From IMG/VR virus record IMGVR_UViG_3300006201_000003, positions 64,095 through 128,094 of that record: a stretch of DNA of 64,000 nt, one strand, 5' to 3'. The stretch is from a virus (lineage: Duplodnaviria; Heunggongvirae; Uroviricota; Caudoviricetes). Every line of letters starts with the position of its first letter. The first letter of the stretch is position 1. Of the stretch, positions 17,512-32,638 are shown piece after piece. A program made the position numbers and the translations under genes. Below the pieces are notes generated by a model, which ran no database searches, had not been told where the DNA came from, and saw nothing but the letters and a program-made list of their open reading frames with translations.

Positions 17512-19116
17512 TTACGGGTCGCCTGTCTGATCCTTACTTTCTCCATAAACAACCTCCGGCGGATTGCCATGATGCTGTGCTCTAAGTGTCGGGCAGTCTT
17601 GCCTAAGAGTACATTTCTTGTTGAGCCGTCCCTGTGGATCAATTACACCCTTGACCTTATACCATCCCGTCTTTGCTCCGCCACCGCCAGCTTCAGCTTT
17701 CAGAACACGGGCAACAGTTTCACTATCATATATTCGGTTGGCATCTCCGTTGTAGTCGTTGATATATCCAATCTGACGAAGATCATTGTCTTCGATGCTA
17801 TGATTTTGTTCGTCGCTAATTGGAGCATTATCAAATGTGGATAGCGCCTTTTCAAAAGCTCCAATGCCAGAAAAGAAAGAGCCAACCACAATATGCTCGA
17901 AAAGATACGGCATAGCCTGGTACAGTTCTCCCAGAATGGCACAAAGCACATCCACCACAATAGAGTTGCCGGCTTGCTTGTAAAGCTGGGAGCCACTACG
18001 ATCATTACCGCCATACAAGTTCTCATTCATAGCAGACTGAGCCTTGTAGAAATCTTCGTCGGAAAAACCCATGAGTCGCCAACATTCTTTTTGCGTGAGC
18101 TTCCGTACACGAAACGCTGGCTCTTTGATTCCAGATTCAATCACTCTCTTGTCCCCCCCCCATCAATAGTGCGAATTGTGCCGCAGACGCCATCTTTGAA
18201 GAAACGAACGCCCTCATCACATCGTTGTTCACATACGATTTTCATGTTTTTCAACTACCCCTGTCATTTGTTGATTTCCGAAACCTTTGTAGTCACGGGC
18301 CAGTAATGTTAAAGCTGTATCGCAGTACCCATCAAACTGGGTTCCTTTCTTACTCAGTTTTGCACCGGCAAGTGAGCAAGTCCCAACAGTGGCGGTCTGT
18401 GGAGCCTCTTCCACTGGTACGGACGGTATTACTGATTTGTCTGGCTGGGGGGGGGCGATCATGGCTGCTACCTTATCATTCGATAGGTAATAACGCTCGT
18501 CAACTTTCTCATCCAGCATATCTACCAGAGCACGCTTCAGTGGGATAGGAGTAGGGAATTTGAACTTTCCGTTATCCAGATCTTTTCTGATAATGACACA
18601 ATAGACACGCTCACGGTTCTGTGGAATCCCATAGTTTTTCGCATTCAGAACCTGCCAGTAGACATTGTAACCGTAATCTTCCAGTTCCTTGACAAAAAGA
18701 TCGAATGTGGAATGAAAACGAGAACCAACGATGTTTTTCACGTTCTCATAAATAGCAAAGCGCGGCTTCTTCTCTCTGAGGAAACGCAACCATTCAGCCA
18801 AAAGTGAAGAACGAGTTTTCTCGATATCTGTTGATCCGCAACTGGGGCAATGGTCACGCTTAGTATAGTGAGCTTCTAAGGGGTTGTAGGTGTGGCCGCA
18901 ATGCTTACAAGTCCATGCAGCCCCCCCCTGTTTGCCCGCTACACTGAAGTCCTGACAAGGGCTTCCACCGAACATGGTATTAAAGTCTGGCACCATCTTT
19001 TCATCGGCTTTGGTAATATCGCCAATGTTAAGTGCTGGATCAACACCATGCACGGCACAGTAACTTTCTGCTGCGTACTTATCAAACTCGCAGAAAAGGG
19101 CAGTTTTGAAATCCAA
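17512..19116 (-). pseudogene. C5-cytosine DNA methyltransferase-like gene, disrupted and rearranged.
   Basis: ORF1 (18229..19116, TTG start) begins at motif II (EFDKYA) with no motif I, then has motif IV GGSPCQDFSVAG, VI ENVKN, VIII PQNRER and a Zn-ribbon TRD. The continuation before motif IX (GTIRTIDGGG, aligning to HhaI ...SAYGGG) reads only in the +1 frame and needs G10 at the C9/G9 tract 18153-18161. ORF2 (17512..18144, GTG start) carries IX (RKLTQKECWRLMGF) and X (YKQAGNSIVV), then an extra motif I-like VVGSFFSGIGAF. Confidence 0.7.
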
Positions 19117-19763: not shown

Positions 19764-20594
19764 TTAGAATGAGCACTCACACGGAAGGTTGTCATCGTCT
19801 TTGATGAGCTTTCGTGCTGCTGCCCAGAATTTTTGAGGCTTGGTTTTCTCAGTTGGTTGGAGTGCCTTTTCTTTGAGCTTGACAAATTCCACCTCGAAAT
19901 CTGACAGAAAACCTTGCTTTAAGATACTGTACCCAATCGCATTTTCAGCCAGCTTTGCCTTTTCCCATATTTCTGGGTAGAGACAATAGACAATAAACCA
20001 ATGCTGTTTGCCAGCCTTTAGGCAACCGATACAATTTGCGTGATTAAAAGTATCATAGGATCTCGGACGTTTAATCCCAACCTCTTCAATATTCTGAATC
20101 GTTCTGGATTCCCAGGTCAGAGGATACTCAGTCTGGTATCCCATCGCAGCCATAATGCCAACTCTTCGTTGAATGCGGTGCTGTTCGTTGGTATCAAAGC
20201 CATAGACAAGGGAGATGTCACTTCTGATCTCAGGAGGATTTACGGGATAGTGCTCGGACAACCATTTGTGGAACGGCTCAGTTTTCAGTCTGTTGGTACA
20301 GAGTGCGGTTGATTGTGCTCCACACTTGAACGCTTTGATTTCCATACATACATCAAACTGATCTTTGGCTTCCCATCCTGGCATATTAGCGTAAGTAATA
20401 GGAACTCCCAAATAATCCGAAACCTCATTTTTGAAACGCTTGATATCTGCGTCTTCGGTACGCGGGCAAAGATCGTGATTGAGCAACACTGTATTCTCCG
20501 CCCCATACCGTCTTACTACTTCCACGGCGGCGATCGCTGAAGAATGACCGCCAGAAAAACAAACAATGTGAATCATACCGACCACAACCATCAC
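19764..20594 (-). CDS. PP-loop superfamily ATP pyrophosphatase (QueC/PAPS-reductase-like).
   Basis: 276 aa; N-terminal VCFSGGHSSA is an SGGxxS PP-loop; C-terminal Cys cluster CIGC. Confidence 0.5.
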   Translation of the reverse strand: MMVVVGMIHIVCFSGGHSSAIAAVEVVRRYGAENTVLLNHDLCPRTEDADIKRFKNEVSDYLGVPITYANMPGWEAKDQFDVCMEIKAFKCGAQSTALCTNRLKTEPFHKWLSEHYPVNPPEIRSDISLVYGFDTNEQHRIQRRVGIMAAMGYQTEYPLTWESRTIQNIEEVGIKRPRSYDTFNHANCIGCLKAGKQHWFIVYCLYPEIWEKAKLAENAIGYSILKQGFLSDFEVEFVKLKEKALQPTEKTKPQKFWAAARKLIKDDDNLPCECSF

Positions 20595-22052: not shown

Positions 22053-22904
22053 TTAGACGCTGGAAGCGGTTCGGAGACTTTTCCAAATGAGCGCCAAAGG
22101 CACAAAAGACACAGCCAGTACGATGCTCTCCTGTTGTCGTCCACCCCCCCCATCAGTCTTGACAATTTCACCATAGACTGGTGCATACGGAACTTTGTAA
22201 GTATAAAGATATTCAAGCACATCAGCCTCTGTCCAAAACGACATTGGCTGAGAACTTGGCTTTTTACCAGAGAAAGCATTGCATCCTTGCCGCAACCATG
22301 TAGATCGGCGGGATCTGCTCTCCTCTGTCATTGTGGCAATAATAGGATATCTGCCAGTTTCTTTTGCGTACTTCTTCATAGGTTTCTTCTTCATCACATC
22401 ACAACATCTGGAAGAAACCTTAAATGGTGCGTTCAGCAAATAGCACCACTTCTCACAGTTAAACTCTGATGGAGTCCCGTTACTCCGCATAATCTCTCCA
22501 TGCAGTTCTCTCCATCGAAACGATCCAGGCTTATGACCATACTCAACTGTGTTTGCTACACGCTTAGAGACAACAGGGTATCCATATACCTCAATGACCT
22601 TACGGAAATTCATTTCTGGTCGTACAACAGTCACGTTTTCACGGCTCATAGCAAACTGTCTGACCTCTGGAAATTCAAGACCAGTATCCGAAAACACAGC
22701 TGGTACATCTGGATAAATGCGCCTCACGATGTCAAGAAGTACAGTTGAGTCCTTCCCGCCTGAAAACGCGACATACACTTGCCCGTCATAGTGCTGATAC
22801 CATTCAATAATGCGGGCCGTGGTAATCTGGATTTTACGAGAGAGAGGCAGACGCTGCATCTCTTCCAGCTGTTCTTTGCTATGCAAAACGTCCGCCTCCT
22901 CCAT
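22053..22904 (-). CDS. PAPS reductase-like PP-loop ATPase, probably frameshifted at a homopolymer.
   Basis: AFSGGKDST PP-loop. After the G8/C8 tract at 22144-22151 the called frame gives a low-complexity tail. The frame reached with G9 reads GCVFCAFGAHLEKSPNRFQRLKITHPKLWNYC...EYIGVSCE, a plausible Cys-containing C-terminus ending near 21952. Confidence 0.65.
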   Translation of the reverse strand: MEEADVLHSKEQLEEMQRLPLSRKIQITTARIIEWYQHYDGQVYVAFSGGKDSTVLLDIVRRIYPDVPAVFSDTGLEFPEVRQFAMSRENVTVVRPEMNFRKVIEVYGYPVVSKRVANTVEYGHKPGSFRWRELHGEIMRSNGTPSEFNCEKWCYLLNAPFKVSSRCCDVMKKKPMKKYAKETGRYPIIATMTEESRSRRSTWLRQGCNAFSGKKPSSQPMSFWTEADVLEYLYTYKVPYAPVYGEIVKTDGGGGRQQESIVLAVSFVPLALIWKSLRTASSV

Positions 22905-22986: not shown

Positions 22987-23415
22987 TTACTCCGTACCGT
23001 CTGTCAGTTGGGGTGACTCACCAGGAGCGGGAAGCTGAGGAGTCGCCGTTCCAAGCCAATGGTTAAGTACCTTGTTGTAGGTATTGTCATTACCCATAAA
23101 ACGCTTGAGCATAGCAGCCATCAGACCAGTCTCAGCACTGAACGTGTCTCCAGGCTGGCACTTCACCACCGTCTTGGAACCATCGTCCCAGTAGACGATA
23201 GTAGCTGGGCCGTTGAAAATCACACGCTCAACATTCGGTAGAGCAGGGTTATTCCGCATATGACGAACAGCGGCGTTCCATCCAGCGGTGAAACTGTTTT
23301 GATCAAGTCCAACCGTTACCTTCTTGGGGGGGGTATACGAACCCAACAAGCGAAGCAGATCGGCGTTTACAGGCTGCACCCTAACGCTCCACGGACTGAT
23401 GTGATTGTCTTTCAT
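22987..23415 (-). CDS. Hypothetical protein.
   Basis: 142-aa ORF; contains an in-frame G8 tract at 23325-23332. Confidence 0.5.
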   Translation of the reverse strand: MKDNHISPWSVRVQPVNADLLRLLGSYTPPKKVTVGLDQNSFTAGWNAAVRHMRNNPALPNVERVIFNGPATIVYWDDGSKTVVKCQPGDTFSAETGLMAAMLKRFMGNDNTYNKVLNHWLGTATPQLPAPGESPQLTDGTE

Positions 23416-23444: not shown

Positions 23445-24383
23445 TTAGTGTGCGTGCAGGTCACAATCGTGCAAAATCATAACCTGCGACCAGATATCTT
23501 CACCAAGCAAATCCTTAAATTTTCTCTCAGTTTTGCTCGGATGATCTGACTTTTCCACAGCGAATGGTGCCATATGCCAGCGAATCAAAAGCGCAACCCT
23601 CAGCTGGTCATCCTTGGACAACAAATCAGCGGTGTGAGCAAAACTCTCATAGGCACCAACACGCTCGTGGTTGTAATAGTGGGCAATATCTGTGGGATTT
23701 CCCTTGCTGTCATGGAAAACCTTTGTAAACTCTTTTCCAATATCATGGAGTGCAACTGCTCGGCCAAGAGGAATATCGTTTGCCATATCAGAGTAGTTCT
23801 TGTCAAAATATTCATAGGCCGTCAACATATGCTGTCCAACCGTAAACTCATGGTGAGGGTTGTCGTGCTCCATACCAGCAAGGCGACTCAGCAGGAAGTT
23901 GATGTCGCCAATAAATGGGTCTACATTTTCGATCCAGATATCATCCCACCCCTCGGCTTTCATCGGAATGTCGATATTCTGATACATCCGATGAATTACA
24001 TTCTCAGGCACAGTGCGTTCACGATTGGCGTTATTCTCTACGCATTTAGAATACGGGGTTACCATAAAAACACAGACGGTTTTAAGGCCAGGAATATGCA
24101 GTCCTTTCACCTGTTGCAGAAAAACACGACGGCGCTTATAACTGATATTGGTAGCGTCATATACCACACTCAAGCCAATTTGCAAATCACGGATTACACG
24201 GTCGTGAAGAGTTTGAAACACCAATTCCTGCTGACTCTGATCATCCACATTGTTCAAAAGTTCCTCACGAATTGCGTCGCTGGAGTGGATGACCGCATGG
24301 GACAATTTGTTTTCCGCATACCAAGACTTTCCGCTTCCAGGAAGTCCAACCAGCATGAAGAAATATTGCGTTGACAGGTTCAA
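23445..24383 (-). CDS. Polynucleotide kinase (P-loop) fused to an HD-domain phosphohydrolase.
   Basis: 312 aa; Walker A GLPGSGKS; C-terminal HD motifs (LHDIGK ... HDCDLH). Confidence 0.75.
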   Translation of the reverse strand: MNLSTQYFFMLVGLPGSGKSWYAENKLSHAVIHSSDAIREELLNNVDDQSQQELVFQTLHDRVIRDLQIGLSVVYDATNISYKRRRVFLQQVKGLHIPGLKTVCVFMVTPYSKCVENNANRERTVPENVIHRMYQNIDIPMKAEGWDDIWIENVDPFIGDINFLLSRLAGMEHDNPHHEFTVGQHMLTAYEYFDKNYSDMANDIPLGRAVALHDIGKEFTKVFHDSKGNPTDIAHYYNHERVGAYESFAHTADLLSKDDQLRVALLIRWHMAPFAVEKSDHPSKTERKFKDLLGEDIWSQVMILHDCDLHAH

Positions 24384-24384
24384 A

Positions 24385-25185
24385 CTACTCTCCTCCTTGC
24401 AGTTCCATTAAGAAACATCGTTTAAGAATTTCTACTGTGGCCGTCTGCATCACTTCATTTGCGTGTTCGTTAATGCAAACAGGGGTTGTATCCATGTACT
24501 GCTGTTTATCAGCTTTCATAGAATCAACGGCTTCTTGCATAAGCCGACGCGCTTCTTCCAGAGAGTGACACCCACGTTTTACTTCTACAAGGTAATCGGC
24601 TTGTTTGCTAACCAAGCAATCGGAATATTTTTCGTCGGCCATGTAGCGTGTCATAAATTCACGCATCCGCAAAGCGTGATGGAGCTGCTTGGGATCGTAG
24701 CCAAACCGTTCAATCTTATCAATGGTTGCAGGATATGGATGCTCCATTGCTTTCTGTTTCTCTAATGCCATACCAAGAAGACAGCTCATCCCAGCATAAT
24801 TGTTATAGCGAGCAATGTCCTCTCTGGCGTCCCAAATAGGCTGGAACAAGTCGGCATAAATCGGATTGAGGATGTAATACGGAGTGAAAAGGATCTCGAC
24901 AAAATTCACATTCTGTTTGCGGATACACTCAAACATAAGCCTGATATCCTTAAAATCTACGTGTTCGTCATTCTCCATGATGTGAGTTGTGCTAACGGGT
25001 TTGTGGGTAAGTACAAAGTCGGAGAAACTGGGAAGCACGATTGCCTTTGTATCAATGTCGCTACTCTCATAGTCCAGGCCGTAGTTTTGAGAACCTTGTA
25101 AGAAAATTCCCAACCAATCCTGCCCAGATTCTCGTACAGCGTCCAAATGCTGCTGTAGCCGATTCATAATGCGGTCTTTATTCAT
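24385..25185 (-). CDS. Pol-beta superfamily nucleotidyltransferase (possible tRNA CCA-adding or minimal NTase).
   Basis: 266 aa; GSQNYG...SDIDT is the hG[GS]...DxD NTase signature. Confidence 0.6.
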   Translation of the reverse strand: MNKDRIMNRLQQHLDAVRESGQDWLGIFLQGSQNYGLDYESSDIDTKAIVLPSFSDFVLTHKPVSTTHIMENDEHVDFKDIRLMFECIRKQNVNFVEILFTPYYILNPIYADLFQPIWDAREDIARYNNYAGMSCLLGMALEKQKAMEHPYPATIDKIERFGYDPKQLHHALRMREFMTRYMADEKYSDCLVSKQADYLVEVKRGCHSLEEARRLMQEAVDSMKADKQQYMDTTPVCINEHANEVMQTATVEILKRCFLMELQGGE

Positions 25186-25504
25186 ATGGGCGCTCCTCCT
25201 TTCTCACACAATCTCTGAGAAGTCGTTGGTAAAGGGATGCGTCATAACTCTCCATATCGTCCCAGAACATCAAATGCTCTGAGGTGTATTCCTCTGTGAC
25301 ATCTCCACTCACATCATAAAGGCGTCCACCGATTTCCTGAACAAAGTGATTTTCCACAGGCTCGTACATCATATTGCCGCCAAACCGCTCTTGCAAAATG
25401 AAAGCAAACCAATAACAGCAGCCGTTAAGAAACACGTCCTTAGAGCCTTTGAAGTTCTGGATAAAGCCGAGAATTTCAGCTTTATCCATCGGTTGCCTCC
25501 ACAA
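25178..25504 (-). CDS. Hypothetical protein.
   Basis: 108-aa ORF overlapping both neighbours by a few nt, suggesting translational coupling. Confidence 0.5.
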   Translation of the reverse strand: MWRQPMDKAEILGFIQNFKGSKDVFLNGCCYWFAFILQERFGGNMMYEPVENHFVQEIGGRLYDVSGDVTEEYTSEHLMFWDDMESYDASLYQRLLRDCVRKEERPYE

Positions 25505-26921
25505 CCTCTTCCTGTGCCTCTTCCATATCAGGTGCAGCAGCGGTATCCTTAATCAATCCCTCAAGAGCCTTGAAAGAGAAATTTTTGTGCTTATAAGCAG
25601 CAAACTTTGGGCGATTGACAATGCGGCAAACAACACCTTCACGCACATGGGTTTTGCCTACGGGGTCAGGGCCGTCGTAGAAATCCTCAGCCAGCTTCTT
25701 TACATATTCGCCAGCATCCACCGCCTGGGGAGAACCCACATTATCAGGCAGTTGGAAGAGATCGGGAATGATTGTGCGGCAGAAGAGAGGTACACACTTG
25801 ACGCCCATCTGCTCACAGCGATAACGCATGAAGTCAGGCGAATACTCCACCACATCACCATCTTCGTTGGTCATAGTCATGCGGTAGACATAGAGATCGG
25901 ACTTCGGTACGGGGATAGAGGCCACTCCGCTCTCATCCATAACTGTTTTCTTTCCGGTTGGATCACAGCCATAACTGAAGAAAGTTGTTTTGCCGTACTG
26001 TTTGGTAAACTCCTTATCACCAATCTTGGCGTTGCTTCCAGGAGACATGATAGGTGTGCCATCGTCGGTGAAACCAACCACCTCGTAGTAGACCTCCTCA
26101 CCCTTGCGGAGTTTCCCTTCAAAGACCTTTGCGTGTTGCTCACGGAAAGAATTGCTTCCATAAAAGCCACCGTCGTAACCGTCAAGAACAACCCGCCTCG
26201 TACCAGTAACATATCCCCAGTCATAGATAGGCGTTCTCTTGATTCTGGCGCGGAGCCAATCAGGAGTTTTCTCGCTCTCAAACAGCCGCTTTTCCAAACC
26301 GTTTTTATATTGGTAGCCTTTGAGGATGGGAAGATAGCCGGTGCGCTGGCTGGTGCCGTGCATCTTCAGCGTAATCTCAACCAGATCGCCGTTATGGAAC
26401 GCAGACAAATTGTAGGCAAGCTGCTCTGTATCTGCGTGCTCCAAGAACAGAGGAGAGATTGGATCAGACTTCTTGCGGACACGGCTCCCGCCACGACCAC
26501 CACCAGCTGCTCGTTTGGCCTTTGGAATGTACTTCTCGCAAATTGTGACACCATTCAGCATTGTGATTGTGTCGCCCTCTTTGAGTTGTGTAGTGTCTGT
26601 AAAGCCATCCAGACAGCTAATAGGAAGAAACAAACCGTCACTCTTTTCTCCACGAAGTTTCAGGGCTTTGATGTTTCGCTTCTCAGGATCAAGATATCCA
26701 CCGGCAGGATCTCCGTTCTCATCCTTTCGCCGCAACAGGTCATTCTTTTGTGCAAACTCGACGCCAAGTTTTCCGTCTACCGGAAAGTAAACGCCAAGCT
26801 GGTTGGGGTCGGTGCCAAGATCCACGATTACCGTATTCCCGAAACACTCACCACACATCAGCCGATCAGCGTTGGTGTGCTTGCGCAGATTTTTAATTCT
26901 TGTAACATACGCACAGTACAT
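25482..26921 (-). CDS. ATP-dependent RNA ligase (Rnl2-like) with an N-terminal tRNA-binding OB domain.
   Basis: 479 aa; KHTNADRL resembles the tRNA_bind (Trbp111/EMAPII) HPNADKL motif; ligase motif I KMHGTS (cf. T4 Rnl2 KIHGTN), motif IV EGVV, motif V YKHK. Confidence 0.7.
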   Translation of the reverse strand: MYCAYVTRIKNLRKHTNADRLMCGECFGNTVIVDLGTDPNQLGVYFPVDGKLGVEFAQKNDLLRRKDENGDPAGGYLDPEKRNIKALKLRGEKSDGLFLPISCLDGFTDTTQLKEGDTITMLNGVTICEKYIPKAKRAAGGGRGGSRVRKKSDPISPLFLEHADTEQLAYNLSAFHNGDLVEITLKMHGTSQRTGYLPILKGYQYKNGLEKRLFESEKTPDWLRARIKRTPIYDWGYVTGTRRVVLDGYDGGFYGSNSFREQHAKVFEGKLRKGEEVYYEVVGFTDDGTPIMSPGSNAKIGDKEFTKQYGKTTFFSYGCDPTGKKTVMDESGVASIPVPKSDLYVYRMTMTNEDGDVVEYSPDFMRYRCEQMGVKCVPLFCRTIIPDLFQLPDNVGSPQAVDAGEYVKKLAEDFYDGPDPVGKTHVREGVVCRIVNRPKFAAYKHKNFSFKALEGLIKDTAAAPDMEEAQEEVVEATDG

Positions 26922-26982
26922 TCATTTTCACCTCTTTGATTTAATTCGTCGCTAAATGAAACATAAATTTTATGCAGTCTTA

Positions 26983-28110
26983 TCAATACATAGCCTTTAG
27001 CTTGTGCGCCACCTCTGCAATGGCCTGGGCCGTTTCCACCATTTCGTCTGCCGTGTTTTCATATCCCAACGAAATACGAACGGTTGATGCAACATCTTCA
27101 TCTGACAACCCAATTCCTTTCAGGACATGAGACAAACTTGCGTCCGATGCACTGCAAGCGGAACCAGCAGAAAGATAAATTTCTTTCTGATCCAGCAAAA
27201 GCAACAGAGCCTCGCTATTTACACTGGGAATGGTCAGACTGATAATGTTGTGTGTCCTTTTTTCAGCGGCGTTTTGCTTGTATTCTCCTGGCATCACCTT
27301 GTCCAGTTCTTTCAGCAAAACATATTCCTGCGTGTTCCACTTTTCGATTTGTCTGGGGAGCCGACTTGTGATGATTTCAGCGGCCTTACCAAGCCCCACG
27401 ATACCAGGAACATTATAGGTGCCGGCTCTTATACCGTGCTCCTGACCGCCTCCACTAATCAGAGATTCTTTCTGGACTCCGCTACGCACATAGAACACTC
27501 CGACACCAAACGGTGCGCCAAACTTGTGTCCGGACATGGAGAGGAAATCCACTCCGCACTTCTTCACGTCGATAGGTATATGGCCTGCCGCCTGCACAGC
27601 GTCTACATGAAGGAGTACGCTGTGCTTTTTACAAAGCTCTGCAATTTCCTCAACCGGATTGATTGTACCAATCTCATTGTTGATCCACATTACGGAAACC
27701 GCTTTGTGACAACAGAGATTTAACAGGCGGCTCAAATCTTCCAAATCCACGCTACCATCGGGCAAATTCTTTACATAGGACACCTCATGTGCCCAACTCT
27801 CAAGCGGATGCGTAACGGAATGATGCTCCAAGGGAGTTGTGATGACCCTCTCGCCAAGGATATGGCTGGCGAATGTGTTATTAGATTCTGTACCGCCTGA
27901 TGTAAAGAAAATTTCAGAGACATCGGCGTTAATCATTTTGGCAACCTTTTCACGAGCATCTTCAATGGCTCGAAAAGCGTTTACTCCTTGCGTGTGAATA
28001 CTGCTTGCGTTGCCAACATGATCTGGTTGGAACCAGGGAAGCATAGCCTCCAGAACCTCTGGAAACATAGGTGTCGTTGCTGCGTGGTCTAAGTAAATCA
28101 CGAATTGCAC
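26983..28110 (-). CDS. Class V aminotransferase / cysteine desulfurase (IscS/NifS-like).
   Basis: 375 aa; SGHKFGAPFGVG is the PLP-lysine motif SxHKxxGPxGxG. Confidence 0.8.
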   Translation of the reverse strand: MQFVIYLDHAATTPMFPEVLEAMLPWFQPDHVGNASSIHTQGVNAFRAIEDAREKVAKMINADVSEIFFTSGGTESNNTFASHILGERVITTPLEHHSVTHPLESWAHEVSYVKNLPDGSVDLEDLSRLLNLCCHKAVSVMWINNEIGTINPVEEIAELCKKHSVLLHVDAVQAAGHIPIDVKKCGVDFLSMSGHKFGAPFGVGVFYVRSGVQKESLISGGGQEHGIRAGTYNVPGIVGLGKAAEIITSRLPRQIEKWNTQEYVLLKELDKVMPGEYKQNAAEKRTHNIISLTIPSVNSEALLLLLDQKEIYLSAGSACSASDASLSHVLKGIGLSDEDVASTVRISLGYENTADEMVETAQAIAEVAHKLKAMY

Positions 28111-28192
28111 TCCTCTCTGTAAAAGAGGCTCAGACCGTAGACAGCCAGTGCGCTATACTATCGTTCTGAGCCTCCTTTGATTTCGTTCGTCG

Positions 28193-29803
28193 TTATTCAC
28201 CAACAACAGGGCGCAATGCGTCCTCAATGGGCTGATATCGCTCCGTGTTCAAAGTCTCAAGCAAGCACTCGTAGGGATCGAGCTTGCCGCTCATCACCAT
28301 CTTGGCGATATTGACAGAGAAGCCGCTGACCAGAGCAACGCCCATATCGTTCTCCTTGACAGGAATCGTCTCGCTACGGCTGGCAACATTCCAGAACACC
28401 AGACGAGGCATCTTGTATCCAGCCTGTTCGTACTTCCGCTTGATCTCGTCGAACAGTCTGGCGTTCGGTCTGCTTGTGTTGTACCCCCAGCGATCTCTGG
28501 ACGGCGCTCCACAGCTGGCGCAGGAGTCAAACTCCATGTCGGAAATGATAAGTACATTGGCGGGAAGTTCGCTCTGATCCATGTGCTTGGAGATTGCCGT
28601 GTTCAAGATGAGGTCAAAGACGGCCTCCACATTGGTGTTTGCTCCAGCGTGGCACTCATGGACGATTCTCAACCGCTCATAGAGGTTCTTGCCATTTGAC
28701 AAGTCAATCAGCTCTGGGCGATCAGAGAAAGTGATATACTGATCCTTGAACTGACCAGAAGAACGCTCGGCAAAATAGATTGCGAGTGCGTTCGCTACCT
28801 CCAAGGGGCGGGCCGTGCTACCAGGGAGCGTTACCCATGTCATGCTCCCGCTGTCGTCCTGGACAACAATCGTGTTGCCGCAACCCTGCACGGTATCCGG
28901 CAAGTTACTCCAAAGAGCCTCCAGCGTAGCATCTACACTGTTTGTACGGCGGTACTTGTTCACGATATCGTGAGGGAATAGCGTGCCGGCGTTAATCTTG
29001 GCGTCACCGCTCTCCACACGCTCCAAAAACTCACGCCGCCGCTCAGTGTCATGGCGGAGAAAAGCATCGTTGTAAATCAGGTTAGCACGGGAGGGGACAC
29101 GCTGATAGTCAATTCCATCCCACGTCTGAGAAGACATCTGCTGCTCAACCACGACCAGATAGCGGGACAAATCTGCCAGCGTGTGCTGGTAATCACGCTC
29201 CGTCATATTTAGACCACTCCGCAAAAGCTGCCCATATCTGCGGGTCTGCTTGGAAGATGTCTTACATCTGGGCATCCACTTTGCAAGCAAAGAGATAGGC
29301 TTCTTCTCCTTGTAGCCACGCATATCATCGTGGAGTTGAGTGCCTACCAACTCAATCACCTTGTCGGCCAACGGAGTATCCAGCAAACACCAGAGATCGT
29401 CCCAGCGGCCATACTCAGGCACCAGAGATAAAACTGGAGCGACATACTCAGGGAAGTCATTCGCCATCGGCACCATGCAGGTACGGAACAGCCGCCGCTC
29501 ACCAAGTCCACCACGCACATCGCGGGCGAAGAACAGCCACTTCATGGCCGTCACCTTATCCTCAAAGAACGCCTTGGTGAAACGCTTGGAGATATCATAC
29601 TCCGAAGCATTACGGAGAGATGCGACCGCAAAGTTGAGATCCAGTAGGGAACGACCCGTGGTACGGTAGCCAACTGCTCCATTTTCGGTTACGGATACAT
29701 TATCAGCTCCATTGACGAGCGTATCCTTGATACCATCCATAAAGTTACTCATTTTTCTCTTACCTCCTAATAAATTTTGAGATACCTGGAACACCTTAAC
29801 CAC
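28193..29803 (-). CDS. vWA-domain protein, possibly TROVE/Ro60-like (DUF2828-like).
   Basis: 536 aa; MIDAS motif VVQDDSGSMT in the C-terminal half. Size and layout resemble Ro60/TROVE-type proteins. The vWA call is firmer than the TROVE call. Confidence 0.45.
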   Translation of the reverse strand: MVKVFQVSQNLLGGKRKMSNFMDGIKDTLVNGADNVSVTENGAVGYRTTGRSLLDLNFAVASLRNASEYDISKRFTKAFFEDKVTAMKWLFFARDVRGGLGERRLFRTCMVPMANDFPEYVAPVLSLVPEYGRWDDLWCLLDTPLADKVIELVGTQLHDDMRGYKEKKPISLLAKWMPRCKTSSKQTRRYGQLLRSGLNMTERDYQHTLADLSRYLVVVEQQMSSQTWDGIDYQRVPSRANLIYNDAFLRHDTERRREFLERVESGDAKINAGTLFPHDIVNKYRRTNSVDATLEALWSNLPDTVQGCGNTIVVQDDSGSMTWVTLPGSTARPLEVANALAIYFAERSSGQFKDQYITFSDRPELIDLSNGKNLYERLRIVHECHAGANTNVEAVFDLILNTAISKHMDQSELPANVLIISDMEFDSCASCGAPSRDRWGYNTSRPNARLFDEIKRKYEQAGYKMPRLVFWNVASRSETIPVKENDMGVALVSGFSVNIAKMVMSGKLDPYECLLETLNTERYQPIEDALRPVVGE

Positions 29804-29905
29804 TTTTGCTGTACGTGTTCAGAGATGTGCCCGTCTCTCCGAGCTGTCACCATTTTATCGTTAAATAGGGTGGGAGGAAACGATGGTTTACGTTCCCCTA
29901 TATTG

Positions 29906-30023
29906 TACGGCAGGTAGGATTTGAACCTACGATTGGCGGTTTGGCTTTTTACCTTGCTGTTAGTGAAACTGTAACATTTCACATTTCATTGACCGCTGTG
30001 TTTAACCACTTCACCACTACCGC
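29906..30023 (-). ncRNA. tRNA-like RNA with ~45-nt insert in the anticodon loop (element 1).
   Basis: T arm GTAGG-TTCAAAT-CCTAC; a 7-bp acceptor pairs (with 2 GU); anticodon stem GCGGT/ACCGC flanks a 51-nt loop containing the hairpin GTGAAA...TTTCAC and the conserved TCACTAACAGCAAGGT. No encoded CCA. Confidence 0.5.
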
Positions 30024-30028
30024 ATAGA

Positions 30029-30143
30029 TGCCAGGGGTGGGACTCGAACCCACGACCACGGGATTAAAATTCCTTAAAACATTGCTGTGAGCGTTTCATA
30101 AGATACGCATTGATACGTGCTCTATCCACTGAGCTACCCTGAC
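30029..30143 (-). ncRNA. tRNA-like RNA with insert (element 2).
   Basis: Acceptor GTCAGGG/CCCTGGC, D arm GCTCAGTGGATAGAGC, T arm GTGGG-TTCGAGT-CCCAC; a ~40-nt extra segment carries the hairpin GCGT...ACGC plus TCACAGCAATG. No encoded CCA. Confidence 0.5.
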
Positions 30144-30356
30144 GTTTTGCTTGTCTTTCCAAGCTGTCACAACCCAGTTCAAGATATTTGGGCTGATTAT
30201 CTGGCGCTTGATTTCAGAACAGACATAAGCGTGCCCAAAGCCCTGCCCCTATCCGCTTCTCGGTGGGAACGGAATCCACTTGCGCCTTTTCGTCCGCAAC
30301 CACGCCGGCTTGTTTCTTAGCGACTCGAAAGGATACCGGAAAACAAAGGAGTCTGA

Positions 30357-30470
30357 TGCGGAGAATAGGACTCGAACCTACGACACATAGCCTCCATTTA
30401 ACCTTGCTGTTAGTGAGAACGAAATGTTCCACATTTTATACCATCGCTCTACCGACTGAGCTATCTCCGC
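30357..30470 (-). ncRNA. tRNA-like RNA with insert (element 3).
   Basis: Perfect 7-bp acceptor GCGGAGA/TCTCCGC, D arm GCTCAGTCGGTAGAGC, T arm GTAGG-TTCGAGT-CCTAT; anticodon stem ATGGT/GCTAT (GU pairs) around a 48-nt loop with the hairpin GTGGAAC...GTTCTCAC and CTCACTAACAGCAAGGT. Confidence 0.55.
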
Positions 30471-30475
30471 ATATT

Positions 30476-30525
30476 CGGGACGCATTGTTGTTTCTTAAAA
30501 TTTCAGAATGACTTGCTGTTAGCGT
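30476..30525 (-). repeat. Stem-loop element GGGACGC-[TAACAGCAAG...]-GCGTCCC immediately 5' of tRNA-like element 3, followed by GAATAT.
   Basis: 7-bp inverted repeat flanking a ~36-nt loop that begins with TAACAGCAA. A homologous element sits at 31130-31195. Confidence 0.6.
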
Positions 30526-30806
30526 CCCATAGTTTCATATTTCAAAGGAGCCAGTCAAATATATTTCTGTTTGGATGCGAACTTAGGGCTTGTCTCGTAC
30601 TTTATTCATTGCAGAGCCTCCTCAACTGCGTTCCGATTCTGCCGCACTCATGTGGGCGGATCACATTTTGAAACCTTGTGGGGCATCGCCCCCCCCCACT
30701 TGTTGCAACCGGTCTACATTTACAGATACAACTTCTTAAATGGTCTGGTCACGTGCTCTATTCATGGCACGTACCTCCTTCCTAAGAATCAGTATGGTGG
30801 CTATTA

Positions 30807-30923
30807 TGGGAACTGACGGAGTTGAACCGCCAAGGAAAAGATTTCAAGTCTTTTTTTATAATGAAGATTGCTGTATGTGTCCGCCACCCGCTACACAGAT
30901 TGGCCTGACCACCGGACGTTCCC
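30807..30923 (-). ncRNA. Possible fourth tRNA-like RNA with insert (element 5).
   Basis: T arm GGCGG-TTCAACT-CCGTC; acceptor 6/7 pairs (GGGAACG/AGTTCCC); an internal ACAGCAATC motif follows the hairpin TGTGT...ACACA. Length 117 nt like the others. The D arm is unclear. Confidence 0.3.
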
Positions 30924-31011
30924 ATGTTGCCGCACTTACACGGCAGTAGTGGTCTTTTCCCACCGTCAAGAAAGGGGTTTGCAATGTACGCAATGCCGCT
31001 CACCACACGGC

Positions 31012-31101
31012 TGGCGGAGTGGGTGGGACTCGAACCCACACACCCTTTCGGGCTACTGACGGTTTAGCAAACCGTTGTCTTACCATTAGACTTACCACTC
31101 C
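31012..31101 (-). tRNA. tRNA-Ser(GCU), type II with long variable arm, CCA encoded.
   Basis: Acceptor GGAGTGG/CCACTCC, anticodon arm ACGGT-TTGCTAA-ACCGT (anticodon GCT), long V arm, T arm GTGGG-TTCGAGT-CCCAC, and 3' GCCA. Confidence 0.85.
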
Positions 31102-31129
31102 ATATTCGGCGGTTGCTAACCGCCACGAG

Positions 31130-31195
31130 ACGCATTTTAACGTGATGAATTAAATGTTCATTGTTTTGTTAAAGTTGCTGTTAGCGTCTCAAACC
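31130..31195 (-). repeat. Stem-loop element GAGACGC-[TAACAGCAAC...]-GCGTCTC 5' of tRNA-Ser, followed by hairpin GGCGG-TTAGCAA-CCGCC and GAATAT.
   Basis: Same architecture as 30476-30525: conserved loop start TAACAGCAA, and GAATAT immediately before the tRNA 5' end. Confidence 0.6.
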
Positions 31196-31206
31196 AAATG
31201 GCTCTT

Positions 31207-31524
31207 TTATTCAGAAATTGAGCCGGAGTCCTCTGTACTTAGGAGCTTGGTGAAATTATTGATGATAGCCGCATTGCCCTGGCGCTGTTTGGACATAGCT
31301 TCTCGCGTCTTCGCCAGATCAGCCGCATAGGTGTCAATCTCTCCCATAGCGTCGTCAATCTGTTGATTGATAAGCTCCAGACGATTGATAGTGCGTGTCA
31401 CAAGCTCGACAGCATCATCCGCCTGCTGCGCAAGCCGATCAACCTCCTGCTGTTTCTCCCGCAAAATGTCATGGGATGCCGTATTGGTTTTCTTACTGTT
31501 GAACGCCATATCGTTCCTCCTCAA
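31207..31524 (-). CDS. Coiled-coil hypothetical protein.
   Basis: 105-aa ORF. Confidence 0.5.
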   Translation of the reverse strand: MRRNDMAFNSKKTNTASHDILREKQQEVDRLAQQADDAVELVTRTINRLELINQQIDDAMGEIDTYAADLAKTREAMSKQRQGNAAIINNFTKLLSTEDSGSISE

Positions 31525-32453
31525 TTCACACCTGGGATGGTGACAATGGAGCCAGAACCAGATACGGTAGGCATCTTACCATCCCACTGCTCATACTTAA
31601 TCTTCTCAATCAGCTCAGAAGTAAGGGAGGCGGCAATCACTCTGTTTGCCTCTGCCTCAGCTTCGGCAGCAATCCGCAACACCTCAGCATCTGCATTTGC
31701 CTTAACCAATGCTGTCTGCGCTTGAATCTCTGCGGCTTCCTTGTCCTTCTCCGCCTGGATCATGGCAACTTCCTTATCTTTGTTGGCCTGAATCTTAGCA
31801 GTCTGCGCCTCAATATTCGCAAGTTCAAGCTCCTGCTGAGCGGTTACTTTCTTTTGGATCGCCGCAGCAGTCTCAGCGTCCACAGAGATGTCGGTGAAGT
31901 TCACCGTGTCAATAATAATGCCATACTTGTCGAACTTCTCCTTGAGGTAAAGATCAAGCTCCGCATTGATAGTTGTACGCTGATCGCCAAAGATGTCCGT
32001 AACAGGATAGTTAGCACTGACCTCCTGAGTCCATGCGATAATCTTGGGCTTGATGAATGTGTCCTTGATCTCTTCGCCGGACTTTCCCTTGAATGTTACG
32101 AATGTTTCAGCCACTCGTGCCTCATCGAAACGATAGGAGAACTCCAAATTTACCCGAACCGTTTTGCCGTCAGAAGTAGGGATACTGAAGCTCTCATCGG
32201 TCTTGCTGTCGCCCTTTTCGTCAGAGGTCAGATAGCTTTGCTCAATACCGATTGAGTATGTCGTGACTTTCTTGGTAGGTGCGACCAGATGCCAACCTTG
32301 GGAAAGAACCTCACCGTCAACGCCGCCGTTCATGTTGTAGACGACGCCGACATACCCTGCCGGCACACGACTGGTACAGAACAGTGCCAAAATGATACTT
32401 CCAAAGATTGCGATTGCAAGGACGATTGCTCCGATGAAACCTTTTCTTCTCAT
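31521..32453 (-). CDS. SPFH/band-7 (prohibitin-like) membrane protein.
   Basis: The track ORF is 31521..32474; the likely ATG is 32453, after GGAGGT. N-terminal TM, SPFH-like core and a coiled-coil C-terminal repeat (EAQTAKIQANKDKE). Confidence 0.7.
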   Translation of the reverse strand: MRRKGFIGAIVLAIAIFGSIILALFCTSRVPAGYVGVVYNMNGGVDGEVLSQGWHLVAPTKKVTTYSIGIEQSYLTSDEKGDSKTDESFSIPTSDGKTVRVNLEFSYRFDEARVAETFVTFKGKSGEEIKDTFIKPKIIAWTQEVSANYPVTDIFGDQRTTINAELDLYLKEKFDKYGIIIDTVNFTDISVDAETAAAIQKKVTAQQELELANIEAQTAKIQANKDKEVAMIQAEKDKEAAEIQAQTALVKANADAEVLRIAAEAEAEANRVIAASLTSELIEKIKYEQWDGKMPTVSGSGSIVTIPGVN

Positions 32454-32470
32454 TGTGTATTTTACCTCCG

Positions 32471-32638
32471 TCAATGTTTATTTGCTGTGTCTTCATCGCT
32501 TGGGTCTTCCTCGTCCATTGCGTCCTTTGCATCCTTGATTAGCCGTCCAACAAACTTGCCGAGCGGTTTGAATGCGAAAGATAGCAGCACCCACAGCACA
32601 GCCGCAAACACAAAGACTAAGAAAATGAATACTGGCAA
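32471..32638 (-). CDS. Small membrane protein (~55 aa) upstream of the SPFH gene.
   Basis: Manual ORF LPVFIFLVFVFAAVLWVLLSFAFKPLGKFVGRLIKDAKDAMDEEDPSDEDTANKH with a TTG start; the preceding C8/G8 tract (32645-32652) could serve as a G-rich SD. Below the track's 60-aa cutoff. Confidence 0.4.
   Translation of the reverse strand: MPVFIFLVFVFAAVLWVLLSFAFKPLGKFVGRLIKDAKDAMDEEDPSDEDTANKH

Follow-up and report, generated by a model that had tools for sequence, protein, structure and literature searches.

Ro60 and Y RNAs form ribonucleoprotein particles (RNPs) that are conserved from bacteria to humans, and the roles of these particles in bacteria and phages are still unclear. Phage T4 uses Pnkp and Rnl1 to repair tRNA-Lys that has been cleaved by PrrC. 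T4 also encodes an RlaP, NrdC.11 (PMC12776372), and the Ro60 gene of Thermus phage phiLo lies just downstream of two Y-like RNA genes (Yrl1/Yrl2) whose products are bound by the protein (PMC12135203). Operons for RNA repair in which tRNA-like RNAs accompany Band-7 and Ro modules are already known (Burroughs & Aravind 2016, according to bioRxiv 10.1101/312249 and PMC7824862); the first of these accounts mentions the co-occurrence of Band-7 with Ro-type components, and the second gives phage examples. Here, we describe a related locus in a 64,000-nt stretch of Caudoviricetes DNA (positions 64,095 to 128,094 of IMG/VR record IMGVR_UViG_3300006201_000003; hereafter the window, whose own numbering is used throughout). 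The locus contains six co-oriented genes at 23445-29803, one of which encodes a DUF2828-family protein, and an upstream array of small RNAs that share a structural module. We propose, with moderate confidence, that the locus is a phage island for RNA repair and surveillance with a Ro60-like RNP at its center, and that in this clade the RNP is coupled to tRNA heal-and-seal repair. For the RNP part alone, a Ro-like protein with module-bearing RNAs, our confidence is good.

The protein and its RNAs resemble Ro60/Y RNA particles in several respects. The DUF2828 protein has the same predicted fold, with helical repeats followed by a C-terminal von Willebrand factor A (vWA) domain that bears a MIDAS (metal ion-dependent adhesion site), and one to several small RNA genes lie beside its gene on the same strand, as in phiLo (PMC12135203). 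The RNAs share with Y RNAs a terminal 5'/3' stem, a conserved junction and a variable effector part. As in YrlA, tRNA-like domains are attached at the position of the anticodon stem, and one related element (locus L045) has the permuted YrlA topology. The bacterial rsr-yrlA-rtcBA (Ro60/Y RNA/ligase) locus and the locus described here are both tied to RNA ligase genes, although the ligase here is ATP-dependent and Rnl5-like rather than RtcB. Moreover, the protein belongs to the families DUF2828/DUF7788 and not to TROVE; the conserved RNA element is AUG/helix/CNN-ACAGCAA instead of a bulged helix or CGAA motif; and, unlike YrlA, the tRNA-like RNAs of the window are not permuted, but have free acceptor ends and a module closed by a hairpin. 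An earlier sequence-only reading of this DNA had raised the rsr-yrlA-rtcBA analogy. The analogy holds, and it is stronger than first noted because the conserved RNA module tracks the DUF2828 gene.

As far as the available accounts of the described repair operons go, their ligase, RlaP-like nucleotidyltransferase, polynucleotide kinase fused to an HD domain (Pnk-HD), Band-7 protein, Ro-like protein and tRNA-like RNAs are all found here in one orientation, and the cysteine desulfurase and YunG-like protein are extra members. The b7a-tRNA is described as strongly resembling authentic tRNA; compared by that description only, the RNAs of the window differ in that they carry a 44-55-nt module or are plain hairpins. 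The locus also follows the logic of T4, in which a phage 5'-kinase/3'-phosphatase is combined with an ATP-dependent RNA ligase that needs 3'-OH/5'-PO4 ends, and the commonest inner loop of the hairpin RNAs, CUUUUAA, is the anticodon loop of tRNA-Lys(UUU). In contrast to T4, the phosphatase is of the HD rather than the HAD type, the kinase is closest to bacterial Pnkp and the ligase is Rnl5-like, not Rnl1; the Ro-like protein and Y-like RNAs are absent from T4. The repair island itself is a further case of a known, computationally defined kind of operon. What appears to be new is the cognate RNA family of DUF2828-type Ro-like proteins, together with its modular topologies and its breadth. No RNA partner for a DUF2828 protein was found in Rfam 15 or in the searched literature, a search that did not extend to Burroughs & Aravind 2016, and no relevant paper in the literature searched mentions DUF2828.

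A modular RNA family beside DUF2828 genes

The RNA array lies on the minus strand, as do the six genes, and consists of seven elements. The first in the direction of transcription is Y-RNA-like hairpin A (31125-31192), which matches R1, a covariance model built from 48 stand-alone hairpins, at 59.2 bits (E 7e-12). It has the terminal stem GAGACG/CGUCUC and the junction CUAACAGCAA ... AAUG; the loop of its inner hairpin is the 7-nt CAUUUAA, and the RNA ends 23 nt ahead of a class II tRNA-Ser(GCU) (31012-31101). This tRNA was called by ARAGORN and by the Rfam tRNA model (59 bits), forms a clean cloverleaf (z -4.4) and has an encoded CCA. It is followed by a degenerate tRNA-like RNA, class X (30806-30923), in which an acceptor stem and T arm are combined with the helix and CAUACAGCAA at the place of the D arm and then an anticodon-like hairpin with the loop CUUGAAA. 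Class X is not called by the Rfam tRNA model and matches R1 in part (30822-30885, E 0.012); its acceptor stem and T arm covary among orthologues from seven loci. Y-RNA-like hairpin B (30475-30530; R1 37.2 bits, E 1.6e-6) has the terminal stem GGGACG/CGUCCC and the same junction as hairpin A, and ends 4 nt ahead of tRNA-like RNA class 1.

The three remaining elements are tRNA-like RNAs that the Rfam tRNA model recognizes despite long insertions. Class 1 (30357-30470; 49.8 bits with a 48-nt insertion) has canonical acceptor, D and T arms, and its 7-nt anticodon loop is replaced by a 48-nt insert consisting of AAAUG, a hairpin, CACUAACAGCAA and a stretch ending in UGGAG. Its orthologues (loci L001, L006, L012, L017 and L066) keep the module and vary in the linkers. 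In class 2 (30029-30143; 43.4 bits with a 55-nt insertion, and a partial R1 match at 30058-30099), the anticodon arm is exchanged for AAUG, a hairpin, CUCACAGCAA and sequence running to AAUCC. Class 3 (29906-30023), ~100 nt upstream of the Ro-like gene, scores 47.2 bits with an insertion of 50 nt and has, in place of the anticodon loop, AAAUG, the hairpin UGAAAU/GUUUCA, CUAACAGCAA and sequence running to AGCCAA. All three classes retain acceptor, D and T arms and have no conserved anticodon loop. The sequence-only reading had counted four tRNA-like genes without encoded CCA; there are four Rfam tRNA matches (29906-31101), but the array is larger and tRNA-Ser(GCU) does encode CCA. Searches of the array with Rfam gathering and E-value thresholds returned tRNA only, with no Y_RNA or YrlA match at E≤1 in 29700-31600, and the signature helix of Y RNAs (Y_RNA/YrlA models, CGAA-type bulged stem) was not found there.

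Six of the seven array RNAs, that is, all of the non-tRNA elements, share one module: a covarying helix of ~6 bp with a 5' AUG and a 3' CNN-ACAGCAA. In hairpins A and B, this helix is the terminal 5'/3' stem, and in this arrangement it often encloses an anticodon-stem-loop mimic. In the tRNA-like RNAs, the helix is closed by a small loop, and the anticodon stem connects the module with the body of the tRNA. Each arrangement is a circular permutation of the other. The family would then consist of one module that is combined in some RNAs with a mimic of an anticodon stem-loop and in others with a tRNA body without an anticodon loop. No Rfam family matches the module, and its motif was found in the searched literature only as a primer sequence.

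The association of this module with the DUF2828 gene was examined in viral and genomic loci. Within the window, the 10-nt motif YWAACAGCAA has five matches against 0.81 expected. The fifth, an exact CTAACAGCAA at 36661-36670 on the minus strand, lies inside a 1027-aa helicase/methyltransferase gene, shows coding conservation in locus L001 and gives an R1 E-value of 0.35; we judged it to be a chance match. A sample of 73 viral loci, each with a gene for a DUF2828 homologue (36-98% identity), contains 225 copies of the motif on the strand of the gene and 18 on the opposite strand; the 2 kb upstream of the DUF2828 start account for 194 copies. It is present at least once on the same strand in 66 of the 73 loci. 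R1 gave 155 matches at E≤0.01 in 1.41 Mb, every one of them on the strand of the gene. A set of 80 independent genome-derived loci behaved similarly: 63 of 65 R1 matches were on the gene strand, 136 of 141 same-strand motifs adjoined the gene, and the module accompanied the DUF2828 gene on the same strand in at least 52 of the 80. Most loci that were at first scored negative have a variant motif whose only differences are in the three bases ahead of ACAGCAA; AAAGACAUAG-ACAGCAA and AAAAGCUCGU-ACAGCAA, for example, occur in the Lachnospiraceae loci L107, L108, L093-L095 and L120-L130. The invariant core is ACAGCAA with the preceding helix, and a broader model would raise the association figures. 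Cognate small RNA genes adjoining the protein gene, a trait of Ro60 and Y RNAs, were thus found in viral and genomic loci and, as described below, in four loci of cultured Firmicutes phages.

Covariation within the RNAs is consistent with the proposed helices. A simple stem test, in which the best 6-bp partner near the motif was sought, succeeded for 65% of motifs and for 28% of random positions; this test was only moderately discriminating, and it was therefore replaced by the covariance model and slid-partner controls. In the terminal stem, all six pairs show double substitutions, and the embedded helix (21 sequences) is 92.7% paired against 35-50% in controls, with compensatory changes at six of six pairs, but both helices had been pre-filtered for pairing before these counts were made. 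The inner hairpin, which was not used in selection, is 80% paired against 33-49% in slid controls, and four of its four pairs show compensatory changes. Because of the pre-filtering, the strand and position statistics and the covariance-model E-values constitute the unbiased evidence.

Several features of the RNAs recall tRNA. The inner hairpins include 28 of 67 with 7-nt loops that fit the anticodon-loop pattern YUNNNRN. In locus L045, the module bounds a permuted, YrlA-type tRNA-like domain, which scores 42.7 bits (E ~1e-7) on the Rfam YrlA model, against a gathering threshold of 69. Its T arm, closed acceptor and D arm match the model, and the stems through which YrlA binds Ro are mismatched. 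Together with the two forms seen in the window, the L045 form indicates that the RNA family spans three topologies, including that of YrlA, with a protein-side module of its own.

The Ro60-like protein and the predicted RNA-repair enzymes

The gene closest to the array (28193-29803, minus strand) encodes a 536-aa protein, which probably starts at M18 (29752) since its homologues begin there. At E≤0.01, Pfam gave DUF2828 and DUF7788 only, and TROVE (PF05731) was unmatched. A profile of 43 sequences likewise found no Ro60 chain at E≤10 among the sequences of the Protein Data Bank (PDB), and the link to Ro60 therefore depended on a predicted structure. The model, built from 43 homologues, has a mean predicted local distance difference test score (pLDDT) of 77.9 and a predicted template modeling score (pTM) of 0.71. 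Foldseek searches with this model returned only four matches at E≤1e-3, and all were Ro60/TROVE proteins matched over the full-length fold. As modeled, the protein has the architecture of Ro60, with helical (HEAT-like) repeats and a C-terminal vWA domain, and its MIDAS motif is invariant among DUF2828/DUF7788 homologues. GenBank labels on homologues read "Ro-like RNA binding protein" or "RNA-binding protein". The earlier proposal of a Ro60/TROVE-like vWA protein was thus right about the MIDAS and the predicted fold, and wrong about the sequence family.

The gene at 25482-26921 encodes a 479-aa ATP-dependent RNA ligase (PHROG 968, 6.7e-62), and profile and fold searches placed it with RNA ligases rather than DNA ligases. 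An N-terminal OB domain of the tRNA-binding type is followed by a nucleotidyltransferase (NTase) domain with insertions. Residues 1-195 match the model of Deinococcus DraRnl (TIGR02306), with a score of 37.5 that is far under the equivalog cut-off of 151, and motifs I (K186-M-H-G), III, IV and V are invariant. The protein has the Rnl5 layout, in which an N-terminal OB domain precedes an NTase domain with motifs I, III, IV and V and there is no C-terminal domain. On the basis of the TIGR02306 match and the invariant motifs, we describe it as Rnl5-like in architecture. It shares domain order and motifs with the Rnl5 ligases DraRnl and Naegleria NgrRnl, but these have ~340 aa, and the longer protein of the window has low-confidence inserts at 135-170 and 242-256 in its predicted structure. 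Membership of the Rnl2 family, which the sequence-only reading had suggested, was rejected. The C-terminal helical domain specific to T4 Rnl2 was not found, the extra domain being N-terminal and of OB fold; structural alignment to Rnl2 was limited to the NTase core (181 of 316 residues of 2hvq and 176 of 1s68), and the sequence match to Rnl2 was restricted to residues ~324-390. That reading was correct in proposing an RNA ligase with a tRNA-binding OB domain.

End healing is assigned to Pnk-HD (23445-24383), a predicted bifunctional enzyme whose N-terminal half is a P-loop polynucleotide 5'-kinase and whose C-terminal half is an HD phosphohydrolase, as had been proposed. The kinase half matches Pfam AAA_33 (2e-18), bacterial Pnkp (TIGR04075, 1.3e-16) and the kinase domain of C. 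thermocellum Pnkp (4gp7, 5.6e-13); in PHROG 6931 it aligns to profile positions 183-337 of 343, i.e. to the C-terminal part. The C-terminal half has the metal ligands of the HD superfamily and shows weak similarity to the HD domains of Cas3 and of CCA-adding enzymes (TIGR02692, E 1e-3). The kinase motifs GxPxSGK (P-loop), SxDxxR, DATN and RxR and the HD residues H178, H185, H213-D214, H235, H239, H271 and D308 are kept in 17 homologues of 36-99% identity. The architecture is that of a kinase with a fused, putative 2',3'-phosphoesterase, the HD assignment coming from motifs and weak hidden Markov model matches (~1e-3). Enzymes of the Runella slithyformis HD-Pnk type likewise have an HD phosphoesterase and a P-loop polynucleotide kinase in one polypeptide. 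Compared with these, the order of the two domains is reversed here, with the kinase N-terminal.

The neighboring gene (24385-25185) encodes a nucleotidyltransferase of the DNA polymerase beta superfamily, probably in a divergent RlaP-like clade (PHROG 388, 1.3e-17). Its catalytic signature GS...DxD is invariant among family members. Five of 38 members match RlaP at E≤0.01 (best 9.7e-6) and no other Pfam family recurs, but the window protein itself scores 18.1 bits on RlaP (PF10127), below the gathering cut-off of 23, and it has no match among PDB sequences. RlaP enzymes add one or two nucleotides (NMP) to damaged RNA 3' ends (PMC12776372). The enzyme had been a candidate for CCA addition to the tRNA-like genes. 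We rejected this role because the protein appears RlaP-like and has no match to a PolyA_pol/CCA head domain in Pfam or NCBIfam; the sole similarity to CCA enzymes in the island is the TIGR02692 match of the adjacent Pnk-HD.

Two further genes complete the block. The small coupled open reading frame (ORF) at 25178-25504 encodes a 108-aa protein of the Pfam family Phage_YunG-like (1.6e-10); it overlaps both of its neighbors and sits between the ligase and NTase genes in relatives as well. The gene at 26983-28110 encodes, as noted before, a cysteine desulfurase; the enzyme belongs to the class-V pyridoxal phosphate-dependent enzymes and is of the NifS/IscS/DndA type (Aminotran_5, 6.9e-80). Its NCBIfam scores for NifS (361 bits), DndA (294) and IscS (284) are similar to one another and all under the equivalog cut-offs. 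The desulfurase is a conserved passenger in the mechanism proposed below, and a role in tRNA thiolation is speculation.

Gene order, distribution and surroundings

The six ORFs between 23445 and 29803 are all encoded on the minus strand, transcriptionally downstream of the tRNA matches, and adjacent ones overlap or are separated by no more than ~80 nt. This bears out the six-gene block of the sequence-only reading, and family, motif and fold evidence support its central proposal of a phage heal-and-seal RNA island beside tRNA-like genes. The co-oriented unit is larger than six genes, extending on the minus strand from ~32474 to 23445. Upstream of the array is the gene for a 317-aa SPFH/Band-7 membrane protein of scaffold type (31521-32474; Pfam Band_7, 7.4e-27; PHROG 200, 4.5e-62), which stays beside the DUF2828 gene in L001-L003, L013, L017-L023 and other loci. 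Between this gene and the array, which opens with hairpin A, tRNA-Ser and class X, lies an ORF for a predicted coiled-coil protein of 105 aa (31207-31524, minus strand). Its start overlaps the end of the Band-7 gene by 4 nt, it has no significant Pfam match, and its position is kept in L001-L013, L066 and L074-L084.

A megablast search of 23445-32474 against GenBank phages gave no match, so there is no close cultured relative at the DNA level. A viral contig of 117 kb from IMG/VR contains a 98%-identical locus (L013). The complete gene order, orf311 / (Band-7) / coiled-coil / RNAs / Ro-like / desulfurase / ligase / YunG / RlaP-like / Pnk-HD / orf142 / PAPS-reductase-like, recurs in the viral loci L001-L013 and L070 and in contigs of Oscillospiraceae/Clostridiaceae (L074-L079, e.g. 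Hominicoprocola fusiformis and Dysosmobacter segnis). Across these loci, Band-7 is absent from some and the identity of the Ro-like protein falls to ~71%. The gene order, whose conservation the sequence-only reading had named as a test, is therefore kept among related contigs, with exceptions that are taken up below.

DUF2828 homologues are annotated in at least 710 GenBank phage genomes, including FelixO1-like coliphages, KVP40, Listeria phages of the P100/A511 type and staphylococcal, enterococcal and Bacillus phages. Seven loci of cultured phages were examined, and the DUF2828 gene usually lies at or near a tRNA array in them. R1 matches beside the gene were found in Staphylococcus phage 6ec (E 3.5e-8), Bacillus phage Thrax3 (three copies), Listeria phage P100plus and Enterococcus phage VRE9_3. 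RtcB is encoded 1.3 kb downstream of the DUF2828 gene in P100plus, and mycobacteriophage Calm has a gene for a "band-7-like membrane protein" 1 kb upstream of that for a "Ro-like RNA binding protein". In VRE9_3 (PP680569.1, L155), the R1 match (5885-5952, E 4e-4) is 50 nt upstream of the DUF2828 gene and falls in 5856-5972, annotated as a 38-aa hypothetical coding sequence without a PHROG; two further copies lie in the tRNA array. The 38-aa coding sequence is probably a mis-annotated small RNA. R1 was not significant in KVP40, E. coli typing phage 1 (FelixO1-like) or mycobacteriophage Calm (E 0.13-0.39), and the module as modeled may be specific to Firmicutes or divergent in other lineages. 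In KVP40 (L154, 5925-6000), a T-arm-like CACGGGUUCAAAUCCGUG just upstream of the DUF2828 gene overlaps a TTTACA-N17-TATAAT promoter-like site and is followed in the leader by UUACAGCAA; no terminal stem was found there and R1 gave E 0.31. Possibly, this T4-like phage has the module in a divergent or reduced form.

Two other parts of the array region are conserved and non-coding. The 213-nt stretch between tRNA-like RNAs 1 and 2 (30144-30356) shares 84.6% identity with the L001 group, and in the L004/L076 group the identity over its 3' 108 nt is 83%. It has three or four predicted hairpins and ten pairs with compensatory changes (RNAalifold) and matches no Rfam family; it may be another small RNA of the array. 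The stretch between class X and hairpin B (30531-30806) has 74-79% DNA identity to L001/L075/L012 and predicted long-range pairing, and its RNAalifold consensus has few compensatory changes. It contains a mini-ORF of nine codons (30736-30765, minus strand; MNRARDQTI) 6 nt behind AGGAGG, which reads MSRARDQTI in L001 and has a GTG start followed by NRVRDQTI in L012, the changes being mostly conservative or synonymous. The same bases are also predicted to lie in a long helix with a downstream segment, and they may encode a peptide, act as a leader or be mere RNA structure.

The surrounding window is a phage replication and nucleotide-metabolism region, with NrdD, DNA polymerase, primase-helicase, exonuclease, C5 methyltransferase and helicase genes. 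A 142-aa ORF (22987-23415, minus strand) without a Pfam or PHROG match travels with the block and has the same position in L001-L013 and L074-L079. In all close relatives, it is found downstream of the island together with two genes that are PAPS-reductase-like (PP-loop), at 19764-20594 and 22053-22904 on the minus strand. With the desulfurase, these three genes could form a module for sulfur transfer or nucleic-acid modification; the desulfurase and PAPS-reductase-like genes may serve Fe-S supply or nucleic-acid sulfur modification, both equally possible. The C5 cytosine DNA methyltransferase is apparently split into ORFs at 17512-18144 and 18229-19116 (minus strand), 84 nt apart. The N-terminal motifs and a zinc-ribbon insert are in the upstream ORF, and those of the C-terminus (Pfam positions 273-322) are in the downstream ORF; this arrangement could come from a frameshift, from a split gene or from an intervening element.

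Alternative explanations and significance

In the explanation that we favor, the Ro-like protein would bind the helix/ACAGCAA module much as Ro60 binds the conserved stem of Y RNAs, and the tRNA-like or anticodon-like part would tether the ring to tRNA-binding partners or present a tRNA mimic. Hairpins A and B would probably be released when RNase P cuts at the 5' ends of the adjoining tRNAs. During infection, host anticodon nucleases or other ribotoxins would cut tRNAs, and Pnk-HD would convert the resulting 2',3'-cyclic-PO4/5'-OH ends into 3'-OH/5'-PO4. The RlaP-like enzyme could then put back a trimmed nucleotide, and the Rnl5-like ligase, which needs 3'-OH/5'-PO4 ends, could seal the nick in the still base-paired anticodon stem-loop.

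A number of observations weigh against this explanation. The parts, their motifs and order, and the association of RNAs with the gene were directly observed, but the links between the parts are drawn from adjacency and homology, and the mechanism is inferred. Two of the RNA helices were pre-filtered for pairing, as noted above, and the RlaP score of the nucleotidyltransferase is below its cut-off. Consensus scans for promoters and terminators gave no more sites than expected from shuffled sequence, and none in the RNA array on the strand of the genes. The ligase gene is absent between the desulfurase and YunG-like genes in the close relatives L008, L012 and L079, which retain the RlaP-like and Pnk-HD genes, and the ligase match spans only ~920 nt in L010 and in the 98% relative L013; the ligase is the most dispensable member of the block. 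Loci at 45-65% Ro-like identity usually have just the Ro-like gene and RNAs, without Pnk, RlaP or ligase, with Band-7, desulfurase, RlaP or ligase sometimes found within 10 kb. Finally, a chromosomal locus from a Lachnospiraceae metagenome-assembled genome (L098, 5400-7570) has a DUF2828 gene with three upstream ACAGCAA motifs and no repair genes, its neighbors being GerA, an ABC transporter, purine nucleoside phosphorylase, cytidine deaminase, a MiaB-like methylthiotransferase, PgsA and CinA. The putative RNP is also cellular and not confined to phages, and the occurrence of Ro-like gene and RNAs without the repair enzymes indicates that it does not depend on them.

These last findings are also the case for two independent neighbors, an autonomous Ro-like RNP and a separate Pnk-HD/RlaP/ligase cassette, which would be clustered only because phages group their genes for RNA metabolism. 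The RNP could then serve in RNA quality control or in the surveillance of tRNAs, or it could be a decoy or sponge that draws off tRNA-targeting nucleases of the host, a role for which a decoy's anticodon-loop mimics would be suited. Most of the distant loci with DUF2828 and RNAs have no detectable repair gene within 6-10 kb, and in cultured phages the constant neighbor is the tRNA array rather than the ligase. We nevertheless consider this account doubtful. The order Ro-like/desulfurase/ligase/YunG/RlaP/Pnk-HD is kept from 98% down to ~71% protein identity, and the overlaps between genes point to a single operon. In other lineages, the family is paired with RtcB (Listeria phage P100) or with RlaP/Rnl/Pnk (L056-L059, L099, L133), and repeated, independent pairing of this kind, with different ligases, is typical of functional coupling. 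The cellular rsr-yrlA-rtcBA operon is a precedent for such coupling (bioRxiv 10.1101/312249).

It is improbable that the ACAGCAA elements act solely in cis, whether as an autoregulatory operator in the leader of DUF2828 mRNA or as punctuation for processing or termination in a tRNA operon. It is common for an RNA-binding protein to recognize a mimic of its target in its own leader, and the copy nearest the DUF2828 gene shares its strand and is usually found 30-150 nt upstream of the start codon. Yet there are often two to seven copies, located up to 2 kb upstream with tRNAs intervening, and copies lie downstream of the gene in Staphylococcus phage 6ec, L113, L116, L133 and L152. The module has no terminator-type U-tract, and a leader operator would not explain its grafting into whole tRNA-like bodies and into a permuted tRNA of the YrlA type.

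The proposal that the three long tRNA-like RNAs are intron-bearing pre-tRNAs, from which an endonuclease excises the insert before the heal-and-seal enzymes splice the halves, draws on the location of the 44-55-nt inserts in the anticodon arm of otherwise canonical tRNAs and on the fact that kinase/phosphoesterase and ligase are also the enzymes of protein-catalyzed tRNA splicing, but it is very unlikely: ARAGORN puts the introns at 33/34, 31/32 and 38/39 instead of the canonical 37/38, with inconsistent and implausible anticodons that include a "stop", orthologues keep the module and not the anticodon-loop sequence while their linkers vary in length and sequence, the same module stands free and occurs in genomes without ligase and kinase, and Pfam and PHROG scans found no splicing endonuclease gene in the block. 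The sequence-only reading had mentioned tRNA splicing, and the inconsistent intron positions and anticodons led us to reject it.

The findings may also matter beyond this locus. DUF2828/DUF7788 proteins and their uncatalogued modular RNA family could represent a second, widespread class of Ro60-like RNP, a previously undescribed pairing present in Firmicutes, in their phages and possibly beyond; we advance this tentatively. It is a more speculative and rather unlikely idea that the RNP displays "half-tRNA" baits, which could serve as decoys for the anticodon nucleases of the host or sense them, or could deliver broken tRNAs, in the manner of an adaptor or guide, to the ligase, RlaP and Pnk-HD. 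A defined RNA partner would provide a testable binding site and would explain why the DUF2828 gene lies beside tRNA arrays. The covarying module would also mend annotation, as for the VRE9_3 copy inside a tiny annotated coding sequence, and the DUF2828 family becomes accessible in cultured phage-host pairs. A complete set of enzymes predicted to heal, restore nucleotides and seal, together with a putative RNP, in a clade of gut phages bears on escape from tRNA-cleaving defenses, and the mimicry of tRNA fragments suggests a means to recognize, or decoy, anticodon nucleases.

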